A stretch of 64,000 bases of DNA from the NCBI GenBank assembly GCA_963762565.1, contig CAVXLD010000012.1, positions 256,001 through 320,000 on the forward strand, given 5' to 3'. The notes below the pieces were generated by a model. That model had not been told where the DNA came from, ran no database searches, and saw nothing but the letters and a program-made list of their open reading frames with translations. The stretch is from an uncultured Verrucomicrobiae bacterium (GTDB lineage Bacteria; Verrucomicrobiota; Verrucomicrobiia; Chthoniobacterales; JAFAMB01). The stretch's first letter is position 1. Each line of letters starts with the position of its first letter. Shown here one piece after another: positions 6,676-64,000 of the stretch. The translations under genes and the position numbers were made by a program.

Positions 6676-6853
6676 TTTAACCGCATCTAGTGTGGTCGCG
6701 CACGGAAAAGGTGATTAGTGATTGGTGATTAGTGATTAGTGAAAAAAGCTGTGTCTGGTTGGAGCGCGAGAAGCTCGTGGTACGGATTTTCTCGGTGTCG
6801 TCATCGATGGTGCTCAGCGGCCGGTCCACCAATCACCAATCACCATTCACTAA

Positions 6854-7867
6854 TCACCCTTCCACCACGCCCGGCAGTAGCTTGCTGAGCTCCGCTTGGA
6901 TGCTGCTGAAACTGACGCGTTCTCTAGCCCGATTCAGCATCGATTCAACGACCTGGTTGTAGTCGGGATTGATAGTTAGCAGGCGCAGCATACGCTCCAA
7001 CAAGGCGTCAAAGCTTTGCCGATCACTGACTAGCTCAGGAACAATTTCCCGTTCAATAGCGCCGTTCCCCCCAACTGTGGGAATTCCGCATAGGAGCGCA
7101 TCGCCTGCTACTTGTCCCGGAACCCGGCTCTGGTCGAACTGGAGTACCAGTCGATGACGGCGTAATACCTGCGTGTACTCAAAGTAAGGCATCGGCGACA
7201 GGACAGTCAGCTGGTCGGCAGGAAACCGGAGAGCTGCCAACAATTTCTTTGACCCGATTGAACCTTTGTCTATCACAGTCACCGGGTGTGACGTCTTTCT
7301 TGCTCCCGCCAGAGCGAGCAAATGGTTTCGCGAGGGGACATCAAACTCGCGCGTCCCAATAAAAATGCCGGCCCGCTTTTCGACCGGTAACGACAGATTC
7401 CAGTTTGATTCGTCGATCGGATAAGGAGTAGGTAAATAGGATACCTTCCGGGAGACGGATCGATAGAGGGGAACTAAATCCGGCGTACTTGAAAGACACA
7501 GGTCAGCGTTTGCCGCAATTTCGCAGAAAGTATCGAACAGTCTGGCGTCTCGGAGTTGAGCGGCAATTTGGTGGGTACCTGATTCCTTAAAGGAGATGGC
7601 AACGACACATCCGTGCGCCTTCAACGTAGCCAGCGCTGATCGCGCGGCTTTGAGGTTCCCCCGCAGAAGCAACAAAACGTTGCGATGTTGCCCGGCCAAT
7701 GTGGTTGTCCGGTAAAACCCGCCGTTGGTGCAGGCTGCATAGGCGTGATAATTCAACGGCGGATGGCCGCTAAAACTCGGCTGAGGCAGTGCATTCCGGA
7801 ACGGTTGGTCTGGATCCCGACCCAAAGGATTCAGTACTGCTAAACCGGGTAAAAAAGCGAAGTTCAC
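6854..7867 (-). CDS. Hypothetical protein, glycosyltransferase GT-B-like C-terminus
   Basis: 337-aa ORF. PGQVAGDALLCGIPTVG resembles the GT-B 'EA..CG.PVV' motif. Confidence 0.6.
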   Translation of the reverse strand: MNFAFLPGLAVLNPLGRDPDQPFRNALPQPSFSGHPPLNYHAYAACTNGGFYRTTTLAGQHRNVLLLLRGNLKAARSALATLKAHGCVVAISFKESGTHQIAAQLRDARLFDTFCEIAANADLCLSSTPDLVPLYRSVSRKVSYLPTPYPIDESNWNLSLPVEKRAGIFIGTREFDVPSRNHLLALAGARKTSHPVTVIDKGSIGSKKLLAALRFPADQLTVLSPMPYFEYTQVLRRHRLVLQFDQSRVPGQVAGDALLCGIPTVGGNGAIEREIVPELVSDRQSFDALLERMLRLLTINPDYNQVVESMLNRARERVSFSSIQAELSKLLPGVVEG

Positions 7868-17814: not shown

Positions 17815-18040
17815 ACAGAAGAGGCGCACCTTCGTGGAATCAGGGGGCAGTGTAAAGTAGAACGTGAGACGTGAGAAGTGAGAGGTGAGAAGTGATTGGT
17901 TGAAGCGCCTCGGGGTGGAAAGCATAAGCGCCGTGTCGTAGGCTTGGCGAAAGCCAGGCACGGTTCAGGCTCAGCATCGTCCATGGCGCCGCTACCACCA
18001 ATCACTTCTCACCAATCACTTCTCACCTCTCACGTAAGAG

Positions 18041-19310: not shown

Positions 19311-19588
19311 CTAGTGTCCTGTCCCATAAATAGCGTGGCTTTCGCCGTCGGTCAGTTGGCTGTTTTTCAAGGCGCGAGCGACGAGCATATCTAGATCGAT
19401 ACGTAAGGAGCGAGCAACGCAGAAAAACAGCCAACTGGCCACGGCCCGAAGGGTTGCGATGAAAATGGACCGGCGGCTGCGTTGCTCGTCGGTTACGTAT
19501 CAATCTAAATATGCGCTCTCCTCGCGTCTTGCCGGCGGCCCATTTTGATCGCAACGAAAGCCACGTTATTTATGGGACAGGACACTAG
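19311..19588. mobile_element. MITE with 34-bp terminal inverted repeats (including flanking CTAG) and two internal hairpins
   Basis: CTAGTGTCCTGTCCCATAAATA(G/A)CGTGGCTTTCG at both ends (33/34 match). A second copy starts at 63822. Confidence 0.88.
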
Positions 19589-19622: not shown

Positions 19623-20495
19623 GTGCCCAGTCCTGGTCTTTGTGCGCCTTCTTGGCAATTAACTTGGCGAACAGTGGCTGAATGTACTTCTGAGGAGGTA
19701 GCAGCCTCGATCGTCCATTGTTTTCAAGGCTACCTGGTCCCCATGACGTTTTCTGTGGAAAGATATGAGGTCCGTTTTCGAGCAGAGAATCTCGACCCAT
19801 TCGCGAGCCGGCTTTATTACAGCAACGAAGCGCTGGCCGCGGCTGTGATGATCGCTCGGCGAGGATGGACTTCGCGGTTAGCTGCCATGGCGGTTGCTCC
19901 CGATTTCCGAGGGCGCGGACTGGGAAAAAATGTGATGAAGGTCACGCTGGAAGAAGCGGTTCTTCGAAAGGATCGCGGGATGATTCTCGAAGTAATCGAG
20001 CAGAATCCAGCGGCGGTCTCACTTTACAGCGCCGTCGGTTTTCGCTTGATGCGCAGGCTTGTCGGGTATGATTTCGTTCCCTCCGGTGCGGGCAATGTTG
20101 CCTCGGACCTCGACCGTCTGAACGAAATCGATCCATTAATCGTCGCGCGACTCGTCGCAGCAGAGGGTAAACCCGATTTACCATGGATGTTGATGCCTGA
20201 GACCTTAGCGGCAGCCACACCGCCGGTTCAGGCTTTTCATCTCGACGATATTGCTTTTGCCACCGTCGCGGATCCCAACGCTGAGAAGATTGTAATCCGA
20301 ACGCTTCTGGTCAGAAAGGCGCATCAGAGGCAAGGCTGGGGATCGAGACTCCTAGGTGCTCTGGAAGCACGCTTTGCGGATCGGCCAATGACGATTCCGA
20401 GTCTGGTGCCGGAAAATATGGCGCCTGGTCTTTTCCGGAGAGCCGGCTGGCAACGGCAAGCGCTTAACCAGTTCGAAATGAAAATAGAGTTTTAA
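19623..20495 (+). CDS. Tandem GNAT acetyltransferase (start uncertain)
   Basis: Two acetyl-CoA motifs, FRGRGLG and QRQGWG, plus NPAAVSLY. Confidence 0.88.
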   Translation: MPSPGLCAPSWQLTWRTVAECTSEEVAASIVHCFQGYLVPMTFSVERYEVRFRAENLDPFASRLYYSNEALAAAVMIARRGWTSRLAAMAVAPDFRGRGLGKNVMKVTLEEAVLRKDRGMILEVIEQNPAAVSLYSAVGFRLMRRLVGYDFVPSGAGNVASDLDRLNEIDPLIVARLVAAEGKPDLPWMLMPETLAAATPPVQAFHLDDIAFATVADPNAEKIVIRTLLVRKAHQRQGWGSRLLGALEARFADRPMTIPSLVPENMAPGLFRRAGWQRQALNQFEMKIEF

Positions 20496-41400: not shown

Positions 41401-42603
41401 ATGAAGGCCGGTTTTCTCGATAAGTTGATTGAGCGGATCCGCCGGATTCAGCCGGAGGAAGTGCAGAACTATCTTGCGCGACTGGCGCGGGAAAAAGGGT
41501 TCCTCGAGCGGATCTTTGATGCGCTGCAAGAGGGTGTCATTGTGACCGACACCCAAGGTAAGATTGAGTTTTTGAATGCTGCCGCCGCCCAACTTTTTGG
41601 AGTACCCGATCCGGACAACGCCGCGGGCAAACCGATCGATGATATCTTGCACGGGTTGAGCTGGAATTCGCTTCGTTCCGCGGAGAGCACGGTGAGCCGC
41701 GATATCGAAGTCTTTTATCCCCAGCATCGGTTTCTGAATTTCTATGTGGCCCCGCTGTACTTAGATAAACCGGTACCGGGTTCGAGCGCTGTGATTCAGG
41801 ATCTGATCGCCTTTGCAGTGATTCTGCGAGATATCACTGAAGAACGGCGCAGCGCCGAACGCACGATCGAGAGCGAGAAACTTTCCGCGTTAACTATGTT
41901 AGCTGCAGGCGTCGCTCATGAGATCGGTAACCCCCTAAACTCGCTCAACATTCATCTGCAGCTGATTGAGCGTAAATTAGGACGGTTACCGCCCACTACT
42001 CGTGAGTCCATCGAAGAATCGTTAACAGTTGCCCGATCGGAGATCCAGCGTCTCGATTCTATCGTCCATCAATTTCTGCGAGCGATTCGTCCTACCACCC
42101 CAGCATTTGAGCCTTACCAGGTAAACGATTTGATCAAGGAATCCGTGGCGTTCCTCCAACCCGAGATTGAAGATCGTGATATCCTGGTGGAGACCGATCT
42201 GGACCCTGACTTGCCAATCGTGGAGGTCGATCGCGATCAAATCAAGCAGGCCTTCTACAACATCATTAAGAACGCCTTTCAGGCGATGAAGACCGGAGGC
42301 ATTCTTTATATCAGATCGTGGCCGGATGAAACCTACGTCTCGGTTTCTTTCAGCGATACCGGAGGTGGAATCTCTTCTCAGGACATGACTAAGGTTTTCA
42401 AGCCTTACTTCACTACGAAATCTTCCGGTTCAGGTCTAGGACTGCTCATTGTCAGACGAATCGTTCGTGAACACGGAGGAGAGATGGAGATCGAAAGCAA
42501 CGAAGGCAAAGGAGTCCGCGTCAGCATCCACCTGCCGCATGGAGACAAGCGAACGCGGTTGTTGCAGGATCGGCGGGAACAGGAAGTGATTGGTGAGAGG
42601 TGA
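41401..42603 (+). CDS. PAS-domain sensor histidine kinase (NtrB-like)
   Basis: GVAHEIGNPL H-box, NIIKNA, DTGGG and FTTK..GSGLGL motifs. Confidence 0.95.
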   Translation: MKAGFLDKLIERIRRIQPEEVQNYLARLAREKGFLERIFDALQEGVIVTDTQGKIEFLNAAAAQLFGVPDPDNAAGKPIDDILHGLSWNSLRSAESTVSRDIEVFYPQHRFLNFYVAPLYLDKPVPGSSAVIQDLIAFAVILRDITEERRSAERTIESEKLSALTMLAAGVAHEIGNPLNSLNIHLQLIERKLGRLPPTTRESIEESLTVARSEIQRLDSIVHQFLRAIRPTTPAFEPYQVNDLIKESVAFLQPEIEDRDILVETDLDPDLPIVEVDRDQIKQAFYNIIKNAFQAMKTGGILYIRSWPDETYVSVSFSDTGGGISSQDMTKVFKPYFTTKSSGSGLGLLIVRRIVREHGGEMEIESNEGKGVRVSIHLPHGDKRTRLLQDRREQEVIGER

Positions 42604-42623
42604 GAGGTGGTTGGTGATTGGTT

Positions 42624-42731
42624 GGTAGCGCGAAAATCTCGGCGGGCGGAGCGCTCGCCGCGGCTCAAATCCGGCGCGATCAATTATCCGATGAAGCTCA
42701 GCCTTCGGCGCGCCGAGATTTTCGGCCTACC
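42624..42731. repeat. REP-like family E palindrome (GTAG foot)
   Basis: GGTAG..CGAAAATCTCGGCG / CGCCGAGATTTTCG..CTACC arms. Confidence 0.65.
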
Positions 42732-55154: not shown

Positions 55155-55436
55155 TTGGTGGGGCGAGGCTCCTGAATCGCCTGAAATGGTTCGCAAGGCG
55201 GATATGCATACCCTAGACCGACGAGTTTTTTTGTGCCTAAACGCTGCCGAGCTGTTCCCAGCGCTTGCCGACAGAGTCATCTGTAGCCCCATCGACTTTC
55301 CCATCGAAGGAGACGGGTAGCGCTGAGCAGTGGCGTACACCGCTCGGCGGTTTTGAGTTGTAAAAACGCGAAGTTTCAACGTCCGCTAATCTCCCTTGTT
55401 CGAGCCTTTAGGCCTGCCGGAGCCTCGCCCCACCAA
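55155..55436. repeat. REP/REPIN-like family A element
   Basis: Arms at 55155-55172 and 55419-55436. Confidence 0.85.
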
Positions 55437-55449
55437 CGGAGCCCAGCGC

Positions 55450-55602
55450 TCACCAATCACCAATCACCAATCACCAATCACCAATCACCAATCACCAATC
55501 ACCTCTCACCAATCACCTCTCACCTCTCACCTCTCACCTCTCACCTCTCACCTCTCACCTCTCACCTCTCACCTCTCACCTCTCACCTCTCACCTCTCAC
55601 CT
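55450..55602. repeat. Heptamer tandem array (TCACCAA/TCACCTC), about 22 units
   Basis: TCACCAA x7, TCACCTC, TCACCAA, TCACCTC x12, then a partial unit. Confidence 0.95.
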
Positions 55603-55644
55603 TCAGGGTTGTAGGGGCTGCAATTGCGGTTTAAGTCAAGCGCG

Positions 55645-62360: not shown

Positions 62361-62565
62361 GGTAGGGCGAGGCTCCGGAACGACCGAACTGGGGTCGCAA
62401 GGCGGAATTGCTCTCCGCGGTACATGGGAGGCAACACCTTAAAGCTGCCGAGCCGTGGATCGCGCAACCCGCGGCTCGGAAGCTTTTAGACGGTGTACCC
62501 GATATACCGGCGAACCGCATTCAGCCTTGCGACCCTTTTCGGCTATTCCGGAGCCTCGCCCTACC
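62361..62565. repeat. REP/REPIN-like family A element (GTAG variant)
   Basis: GGTAGGGCGAGGCTCCGGAA / TTCCGGAGCCTCGCCCTACC arms. It contains the hemL stop codon. Confidence 0.85.
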
Positions 62566-63838
62566 TTAACCCTGCCCGCATTACTTCTATGGTCCGGGCG
62601 AGGTCAGAGTGAGTATGAGCCAGGCAAAGGAAACCTGCCTCGAATTGGGACGGGGCAAAATAGATTCCCGAACTCAAGCAATGATGGAAGAAGGACCGGA
62701 ACGCGGCCAAGTCTGAGCGCCGGGCATCGCTAAGGTTGTGCACAGGTGGTTCGCAGAAGTAGAGGCAGAACATAGAACCAATGCGTTGAAACGCGTAATT
62801 TCTGCCGGTTTCACTTAAGGTTTGCTTGACCGCAGCTTCCATTTCACTCCCCAGCTTCTCTAATCGGTTAAAACCGTCGTTGTGTTCGAGTTCCCGAAGC
62901 TGGGCTAGCCCGGCGGCCATGGCCAGCGGGTTACCCGACAACGTGCCGGCCTGATATACCGGTCCGTCCGGGGACAACTGGTCCATGATCTCGGCGCGAC
63001 CGCCAAATGCACCGACCGGAAGGCCGCCTCCGATTACTTTGCCCAGTGCGGTCAAGTCGGGGCGGATTCCAGCCAGTTCTTGGTAACCGCCTTTTGCCAA
63101 GCGAAATCCCGTCATCACTTCGTCAAAGATCAAGAGCGACCCATGAGTGGAACAGAGCTGGCGTAACTGTTCCAAAAATCCGGGTAGCGGCAAGTAAAGG
63201 CCGGCGTTAGCAGGTACTGGTTCGACGATGATAGCGGCAATCTTCTCGCCTTGGGCGTCGAAGATCGCAGCCAGTTTTTCCGAGTCATTGAATGGCAACG
63301 TGATCGTTAGTGCAGCCAACTCCGCAGGGACGCCGGCGCTGTCAGGTGAGCCATGAGTCAAAGCTCCACTACCAGCTTTAACCAAGAGAGAATCGACGTG
63401 GCCGTGATAACATCCCTCGAATTTAACGATAAAATCTCGCCCGGTATATCCGCGAGCCAGCCGGATGCACGACATGGTTGCTTCCGTGCCGCTATTAACC
63501 ATCCGCACTTTCTCCACCGATGGCACCCAGCTACAGATAAGCTTCGCCATTTCGACTTCGAACGGATTCGGGATGCCAAAGCTGAGGCCGTTGACTGCTG
63601 CTTTTTGCACCGCTTCCACCACTATCTCTGGCGCATGCCCGAGAATGGCGGGTCCCCACGTCCCAACAAAATCGATGTATTCCCGGCCGTTTACATCCCA
63701 GAGGTGCGAGCCTTTGGCTTTAGTGACAAAGAACGGCTCTCCTCCAACGTTGCGAAAAGCTCGGACCGGAGAATTAACCCCGCCGGGAATGTATCGGCGC
63801 GCCTCCGAGAATAAAGATGCATTTGTTTCCTGTCCCAT
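62561..63838 (-). CDS. hemL: Glutamate-1-semialdehyde 2,1-aminomutase
   Basis: PGGVNSPVRAF, NSGTEA, FDEVMTGFR and GKVIGGGLP motifs. Confidence 0.97.
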   Translation of the reverse strand: MGQETNASLFSEARRYIPGGVNSPVRAFRNVGGEPFFVTKAKGSHLWDVNGREYIDFVGTWGPAILGHAPEIVVEAVQKAAVNGLSFGIPNPFEVEMAKLICSWVPSVEKVRMVNSGTEATMSCIRLARGYTGRDFIVKFEGCYHGHVDSLLVKAGSGALTHGSPDSAGVPAELAALTITLPFNDSEKLAAIFDAQGEKIAAIIVEPVPANAGLYLPLPGFLEQLRQLCSTHGSLLIFDEVMTGFRLAKGGYQELAGIRPDLTALGKVIGGGLPVGAFGGRAEIMDQLSPDGPVYQAGTLSGNPLAMAAGLAQLRELEHNDGFNRLEKLGSEMEAAVKQTLSETGRNYAFQRIGSMFCLYFCEPPVHNLSDARRSDLAAFRSFFHHCLSSGIYFAPSQFEAGFLCLAHTHSDLARTIEVMRAGLR

Positions 63839-64000
63839 AAATTGCATGGCTTTCGCCGTCGGTCAGTTGGCTGTTTTTCAAGGCGCGAACGACGAGCATA
63901 TCTAAATTCATACGTAAGGAGCGAGCAACGCAGAAAAACAGCCAACTGGCCACGGCCCGAAGGGTTGCGATGAAAATGGGCCGGCGGCTGCGTTGCTCGT
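63822..64000. mobile_element. Second copy of the CTAG-flanked MITE (cut by the window end)
   Basis: Near-identical to 19311-19489. Confidence 0.88.

Follow-up and report, generated by a model that had tools for sequence, protein, structure and literature searches.

The 64-kb window, that is, the whole stretch of 64,000 nucleotides that was analysed, carries a 272-bp gene-less element that is almost certainly a non-autonomous MITE of the IS630 type. As a MITE it is of a known, ordinary kind; what is out of the ordinary is its shared, selected core. The interior consists of two inverted copies of one ~55-nt core, each on a ~25-bp stem, with a GNA mini-hairpin between them. One structured interior, selected on non-canonical pairs, recurs across phyla and transposase families. 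On balance, the account we favour is that of an IS630 MITE with a passenger core that acts on folded single-stranded DNA. New here are the identification of the element's two loops as inverted cores, evidence that refutes pairing from loop to loop, ends matched directly to those of two IS families, a core-to-end spacing that is fixed, a sequence-level comparison with ERIC and the case of hemL.

The initial annotation had described a MITE with twin hairpins at 19311..19588, and these coordinates are right. Complementarity between the two 34-nt arms, 19311-19344 and 19555-19588, reaches 97%, and both hairpins and the CCC-GAA-GGG mini-stem (19445-19453) are present where they had been placed. The outermost CTAG represents the target together with a TA duplication, which leaves an element proper of 19314-19585 and a TIR proper of 31 bp. 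The folding z-score is about -14 on both strands, with none of 200 shuffles equally good. A single listed ORF runs across the element, which has no transposase; the listed IS630 genes all lie outside. Being gene-less, TIR-bounded and multi-copy, the element is upheld as a MITE, and, as had been proposed, it is more elaborate than an IS remnant. Its features are as follows.

19312..19313, no strand: left TA of the target duplication (in CTAG)
19314..19585, no strand: whole MITE, 272 bp, double-core form, delimited by repeats; end bases near-invariant across 68 ends, position -3 variable
19314..19344, plus strand: left TIR, 31 bp, IS630-like by end comparison
19344..19445, plus strand: arm 1, stem 19344-19368 / 19422-19445, which closes core 1 (folding)
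19368..19422, plus strand: core 1, with CAAGGCG, tandem G·A steps, apical hairpin and GAGCAACGCAG; the purine-rich strand is the plus strand
19445..19453, plus strand: junction mini-hairpin CCC-GAA-GGG with a GNA loop
19453..19555, minus strand: arm 2, stem 19453-19477 / 19531-19555, which closes core 2 (folding)
19477..19531, minus strand: core 2, inverted copy of the core 1 module; the purine-rich strand is the minus strand
19555..19585, minus strand: right TIR, with an outward-reading ATG at 19572-19574
19586..19587, no strand: right TA of the target duplication

Two copies had been reported; the source genome (G000) in fact holds 34 full-length copies, with 41 paired elements and 120 end-like hits, and the median pairwise identity among the full copies is 0.949. 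A MITE match was found in 20 of 24 genomes of the family compared to none of 16 genomes of other families in the order, and a plasmid search with either form of the element gave no match. Read from outside, the 68 ends begin with C (47) or T (18), followed by T (56), A (59) and an almost invariant GTGT. TA flanks both sides of 16 of the 34 copies, at 11 CTAG targets and 5 others; since these five are not CTAG, a 2-bp TA duplication is favoured over a 4-bp one. Identical 2-bp flanks occur in only 16 of the 34 copies, and many copies deviate from a TA duplication. The window holds a second copy:

63825..64000, continuing to about G000:C12:320097, no strand: second MITE copy, inserted in the 5' end of hemL

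The site of this copy is empty in all five same-genus genomes, which read CTAG, CTAG, CTTG, CTAA or CTCG; the result applies to the second copy only, the flank of the first being too diverged for alignment with relatives. TIR variants were present at both ends of one copy 18 times, compared to 5.9 times after shuffling (maximum 14). These paired changes are partly due to shared descent, and three double changes are confined to single copies. In about half of the 34 copies, core 1 or core 2 has acquired an extra 18-nt mini-hairpin, inserted at one fixed place just after CAAGGCG and in two co-varying versions.

A search for a transposase with like ends led to the IS630 family. Among the IS630 ends of relatives, the best agree with the TIR in 19 of 21 bases (right ends of L041 and L060), and those of L049, L050 and L065 in 15-17. 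The source genome itself has two intact IS630 copies of 355 aa, which are 99.6% identical and score above the cut-off of NF033545.

G000:C5:13195-14358 and G000:C1:708563-709726, strand not given: intact IS630 copies (L021, L022), NF033545

Each of the two shares a TA with a full MITE copy, an adjacency expected by chance about 1 time in 10,000 by rough arithmetic (10,546 CTAG sites, about 120 MITE ends). The ends of these resident copies agree with the MITE end in no more than 12-13 of 21 bases, so that the genome may at present lack the mobiliser. Core-bearing MITEs abut an IS630 at 4 of 30 loci, and other IS630 flanks resemble further MITE ends. One relative (G017) has 48 IS630 matches, several of which adjoin copies of the studied MITE. 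From the family and the end matches, we infer that IS630 would be the mobilising and catalysing partner: its transposase, supplied in trans, would bind the 31-bp ends and direct insertion to TA, in most cases within CTAG. RUP of Streptococcus pneumoniae (107 bp) is linked to its proposed mover, IS630-Spn1, by evidence of the same kind (PMC2229807). RUP resembles the studied MITE in being gene-less, in its TA target, in a TIR similar to that of an IS630 and in its IS association, and differs in that the sections of PMC2229807 on RUP describe neither a conserved non-canonical core nor a double-arm form.

The two 53-nt loops had been described as near reverse complements of each other, with several mismatches becoming G-U pairs on the minus strand. 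Both points hold, with 41 of 53 positions Watson-Crick in an ungapped comparison and 3 (plus strand) or 4 (minus strand) of the mismatches G·T. From this complementarity the initial annotation had derived a two-state or kissing-loop RNA/ssDNA structure. A switch of this kind, with loop 1 paired to loop 2, now appears highly improbable. The loops are not open, as each self-pairs through tandem G·A steps, and loop 2 written on the minus strand is the same module as loop 1. Loops 1 and 2 of one copy are no more alike (0.664) than loops taken from randomly paired copies (0.670), and 77% of shuffles were as high; across the 34 copies there was no compensatory change between the loops, and their variable tips match in none. 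We forced the loop-to-loop rod and the two-arm fold in turn, using RNA and DNA energies on both strands of all 34 copies. The rod was the better fold in 3 (RNA, plus), 7 (RNA, minus), 2 (DNA, plus) and 6 (DNA, minus) copies, hence in at most 7 of 34. What speaks for a switch is that the two folds are close in energy in the window copy, where the rod is favoured by 3.0 (RNA, plus) and 7.9 (RNA, minus) kcal/mol, disfavoured by 3.9 kcal/mol (DNA, plus) and about equal (DNA, minus). However, this copy is the extreme of the set, being the most complementary of the 34 (0.78). In addition, the 18-nt insertion in one loop usually has no mirror in the other, and most relatives elsewhere are single-core and hence have no partner loop. 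The loop-to-loop complementarity is a by-product of the inversion of one module.

An exact pattern built on this module matched at least 123 stretches in GTDB genomes and at least 120 in metagenomes. Starting at a stem, the fold passes into an internal loop, C-AAG/(A,C)-G, and a short helix that has a 3-nt bulge; two or three tandem G·A steps follow, spaced by one or two normal pairs, and a further short helix leads to a variable tip. Pairs fixed by the pattern carry no weight in what follows, and the cores are related, so that the counts are not of independent events. Among the matches listed, 116 of 118 unique genome cores have a Watson-Crick pair between two G·A steps (G:C 71, C:G 35, A:T 8, T:A 2), compared to a mean of 55 and a maximum of 72 after shuffling. 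The metagenome set gave 105 of 106 further cores, again among the matches listed (shuffles: mean 49, maximum 69). The left GA, which the pattern leaves free, is present in 109 of the 118 and 101 of the 106 unique cores listed. In an alignment of 116 sequences from the matches listed, the structure was 88.7% paired, with a covariation of 0.502 compared to 0.144 when shuffled and at most 0.131 when slid. Lower-stem mismatches among the matches listed were G·T 92 times and A·C 33 times, which indicates that it is the purine-rich strand that folds. Collectively, covariation shows the core as one that would fold on its purine-rich strand into a non-canonical G·A helix, and selection on the non-canonical pairs appears visible at the level of sequence. 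Two known motifs were considered for this fold and rejected. A kink-turn has a 3-nt bulge and then, directly 3', tandem G·A; here, the bulge lies 3' of the GA with paired bases between. attC, as commonly defined, has a different motif order.

The core is widespread. Among the matches listed, 80 titled genome loci belong to the Acidobacteriota, Proteobacteria, Bacteroidota, Myxococcota, Nitrospirota, Nitrospinota, Elusimicrobiota, Actinomycetota, Gemmatimonadota, Planctomycetota, Omnitrophota and Verrucomicrobiota; viral contigs gave no match to the pattern. An enclosing inverted repeat was found for 81 of the 123 genome loci listed, and the 42 without one include some cut by contig ends. Most of the bounded elements listed are 157-169 bp long and have a single core at their centre. 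Among the matches listed, the distance from an end to the start of the core is 53-58 nt in 66 of 81 genome and 56 of 72 metagenome elements with an inverted repeat (79 metagenome elements examined). A rough sorting of the ends of these 81 gave IS630-like (41), TWAGGG (23), CAGCCCGTGG (5), GAGCCTGTGAA (3) and other (9) classes. The CAGCCCGTGG class shares its ends with autonomous elements whose best family is IS1182 (E 1e-46; 159.6 bits, below the cut-off of 270). The IS1182/IS5-like partners are found at L239 and also L362; at L239:1720-1920 (G060), two tandem IS1182-like copies enclose a core MITE, which shares CTAG ends with both. A partner IS was sought for the TWAGGG class, and none was found. 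Searches with IS701-type (PF13546), DUF4096 and DUF772 profiles returned no shell partners, only unrelated elements.

Double-arm forms with the same junction were found in Nevskia, where the second core is confirmed, and in Bordetella sp., Omnitrophota and L146, where the second arms are more diverged; in the clearest of them, the core lies ~56 nt inside each end. A Shewanella locus (L104) considered as a double-core element has neither a second core nor the junction. At L090 and L066 the cores form a direct tandem repeat, unlike the inverted pair of the window MITE. One Nitrospirales chromosome (G064, L093) holds at least 150 core copies in shells of at least three types with TWAGGG-like ends, for which a partner IS was sought and none found. 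Inspection by eye of 12 copy-rich regions of this chromosome revealed no dedicated neighbour gene, nor was there one among 103 of 142 neighbouring ORFs of the metagenome copies listed. Searches of the literature found no description of the core or of its sharing between IS families, and a search by core sequence words returned only unrelated titles; subscription papers, figures and supplements, which lay outside these searches, may hold one.

Further IS630-like shells of the source genome also hold the double core, or part of it, with CG as the boundary on either side; one of these shells matches the ends of the IS630 L051.

G000:C3:44497-44712, C13:127500-127781, C15:17380-17583, C1:522446-522640, C7:337023-337180 and C7:80799-80998, strand not given: double cores in other shells

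The TIR of the studied MITE was also observed around no interior or around other repeat families (G000:C10:130778-130823, C10:226498-226698, C11:174149-174465 and C7:270040-270331). One hybrid among these elements has a different shell at each end.

A recurring interior could also be a core with no function, that is, one ancestral interior that spread horizontally, its ends swapped by recombination and its pairing kept by templated repair on a fold-back strand. The distribution is patchy, as such a history would have it, with the strict core pattern in none of 300 other genomes of the phylum; the TIR ends change together, and the same interior sits in several shells of the source genome. We nevertheless regard this explanation as quite unlikely. 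Templated repair would lead to perfect palindromes, and the G·A steps and bulges would vanish instead of being kept while the single pairs between them swap. Moreover, stems and tips diverge freely, yet the spacing to the end stays at 53-58 nt.

A further possibility is that the core is itself a REP-like mobile unit, which a single-strand nuclease (RAYT, GIY-YIG) or else an IS110 recombinase would cut out and place in MITE shells. The CG that bounds the double core on both sides in four different shells of the source genome would fit such a unit, as would small hairpins inserted at one fixed position in the core. This reading is very doubtful, since no core was found at any of 12 Y1_Tnp loci, which also argues against a REP or REPIN by RAYT link, or in the flanks of a small GIY-YIG gene. 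No nuclease recurred among 103 proteins neighbouring the metagenome copies listed, the one IS110 among the neighbours listed lies outside the element, and most hits of a loop profile that fall outside paired elements lie in other shells or in broken copies. REP doublets (REPINs) and CGTC-tagged REPs do resemble the studied MITE in having two related inverted hairpins, and some REP dimers lie inside longer palindromes (PMC3733652). As characterised in the sections of PMC3733652 on these repeats, however, they are much smaller units, and the MITE differs from them in its IS-type TIRs and TA duplication and in having no GTAG or CGTC tag. By that source's definition, a REP carries such a tag at the foot of a 20-40 bp palindrome, and the arms here are ~100 nt with neither. 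CIR repeats of Caulobacter likewise have two long arms and a linker, but as described in PMC2229807 they lack a 5'-3' terminal stem and expose a GANTC site.

The function that we consider plausible, though short of probable, is that of a folded single-strand DNA signal that would help the element to spread. The core would be a passenger module, and a widespread host or transposition factor would recognise it in the form of folded single-stranded DNA. Placed at a constant distance from the end, it would raise the copying rate or survival of the element, and the double form would give each end, and each strand, a correctly placed core. A passenger that raises spread would explain why the core is found in MITEs of different IS families. 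Internal enhancers of transposition of the Stowaway MITE mPing/Ost35 type, known from plants, indicate that interiors may raise mobility beyond what the ends do; these enhancers are eukaryotic, and the likeness is one of idea only.

The main rival is a role in RNA, which we judge unlikely: the core would be selected as folded in read-through transcripts, where it would be cut or protected by RNases or bound by an RNA-binding protein, so that insertions are tolerated, and the double form would work in either direction of transcription. Tandem GA in a C-GA-G context is also stable in RNA. The G·A ladder of the two-arm fold is obtained with an RNA model too, the excess of G·T over A·C is as compatible with RNA as with DNA, and ERIC affects mRNA stability in an orientation-dependent manner (PMC2229807, PMC10969869, in their passages on ERIC). 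In contrast, single-core elements are sense and antisense to co-directional neighbours about equally often, 13 to 12 in genomes and 15 to 20 in the metagenome set, by rough gene calls among the matches listed. By similarly rough calls, 14 of the 34 genome copies lie between divergent genes, with 9 and 6 co-directional and 5 convergent. An Rfam search of the MITE gave no real match, the best being mir-34 (E 4.9; 14.6 bits, where the cut-off is 53.4). In 33 of 34 copies the junction loop is GNA, with ANA as well as GNA in other genomes, and GNA mini-hairpins are much more stable as DNA than as RNA, according to the part of PMC13037366 that treats them. The single-strand DNA reading is favoured because there is no strand bias, the junction loops are GNA and the TIRs change together. 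Replication arms assigned by GC skew showed no bias (36:29 and 18:19); a free half-split gave p = 0.04, but the split did not fall at the skew switch.

ERIC is a known element whose interior resembles the core by inspection. Like the studied MITE, ERIC (IRU, RU-1) of the enterobacteria is a TA-ended MITE. Its 127-bp consensus, as given in Table 1a of PMC2759123, has the block order of loop 2: first CAAGGCG, then tandem G·A steps two pairs apart, next GAGC/GTGA under a variable tip and lastly CAACGC. We folded five E. coli K-12 ERIC copies, which have CAAGG-like starts, tandem G·A below the tip (GAGC/GTGA) and AACGC ends; three of the five have two further G·A steps. One E. coli ERIC has the apex GAGCATA / TATGTGA, of a kind (GAG...TGA) seen in 15 of 118 cores among the matches listed. 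When E. coli K-12 was searched with a loose pattern of the skeleton, there were 16 hits, five of them ERIC-like, compared to 9 control hits. A covariance model of the core (R1), which is shorter than the ERIC core, produced no genome-wide hit on ERIC; it scored 18-20 bits on 3 of 4 loci with default filters and fell to background level with filters off. ERIC differs in its longer core, of 72 nt, with an extra helix, its unrelated ends and its single core, and the 272-bp length and the ends of the studied MITE, unlike the consensus, set it outside ERIC. The MITE is thus built like ERIC but is not one, and the two may share descent. YPAL/RU-2, considered on account of its 168-bp length, was rejected by eye from the table in PMC2759123.

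Bacterial MITEs are usually treated as IS remnants. MITE clusters are mostly genus-specific (PMC11602168, in the part on clusters), and MITE interiors are unrelated between families in Neisseria, in E. coli and in Anabaena (PMC3184786, in its account of these families). We advance only tentatively the broader idea that bacteria share one superfamily of MITE interiors, of which ERIC would be the best known: a tandem-G·A single-strand hairpin that joins unrelated IS ends (IS630, IS1182/IS5-like and others) at fixed spacing and recruits a conserved cellular protein, so that tiny elements replicate. If so, MITEs would be built from a reusable part and not left by IS deletions, and the double core of the window would be the symmetric version. 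Were the core a relative of ERIC, it would give a handle on why the ERIC interior is conserved and how ERIC moves; this question is directly testable, as the core can be mutated and a candidate transposase family is available.

The initial annotation had also placed both copies immediately upstream of genes and suggested that the element may act as a portable 5' UTR. The first copy does lie upstream of an ORF of the GNAT family, but the second is inside the 5' end of hemL, which it faces with the opposite end from that which the first copy turns to its gene.

19623..20495, plus strand: GNAT acetyltransferase ORF, neighbour of the first copy; its start is probably the ATG at 19743
62561..63838, minus strand: hemL (glutamate-1-semialdehyde aminomutase), TIGR00713 above cut-off; the frame starts in the TIR of the second copy

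The second copy was inserted after the fifth codon of hemL, and its TIR supplies an in-frame ATG that preserves length and frame. The protein here starts MGQETNASLFSE; four of five relatives, of equal length, start MTQ-x-x-S-x-x-LFSE, and the fifth starts three codons later. MITE ends can thus rescue an insertion into the start of a housekeeping gene. If the whole element were transcribed, the hemL ATG would be inside the terminal stem. The portable 5' UTR survives only as this one end that supplies a start codon; as a general role it fails, since the orientation to neighbouring genes is not fixed. The outward ATG of the TIR opens a frame of at least 100 codons at 10 of 102 ends, and that of the first window copy (19572-19574) closes after 6 codons. 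A second N-terminal replacement was considered for an MFS gene at G000:C3:584901 and rejected, as its relatives appear to start at a kept TTG. No sigma-70 promoter pattern was found inside or beside the element, and three weak terminator-like sites were found in or beside it.

Several other repeats and genes were observed. Many other REP-like families occur across the 64-kb window, and heptamer tandem repeats of the TCACCAA / TCACCTC type form inverted pairs around unique interiors at 55416-55604, 17845-18035, 6699-6864 and 42567-42624. The small stand-alone GIY-YIG gene at G000:C1:180071-180283 (minus strand) has tRNA-like repeats on its flanks. RAYT-type Y1 transposase genes, one with an internal stop, are present at G000:C7:408772, C3:712536, C3:55497, C9:102253 and C1:119032, with inverted repeats of their own that are unrelated to the studied MITE.
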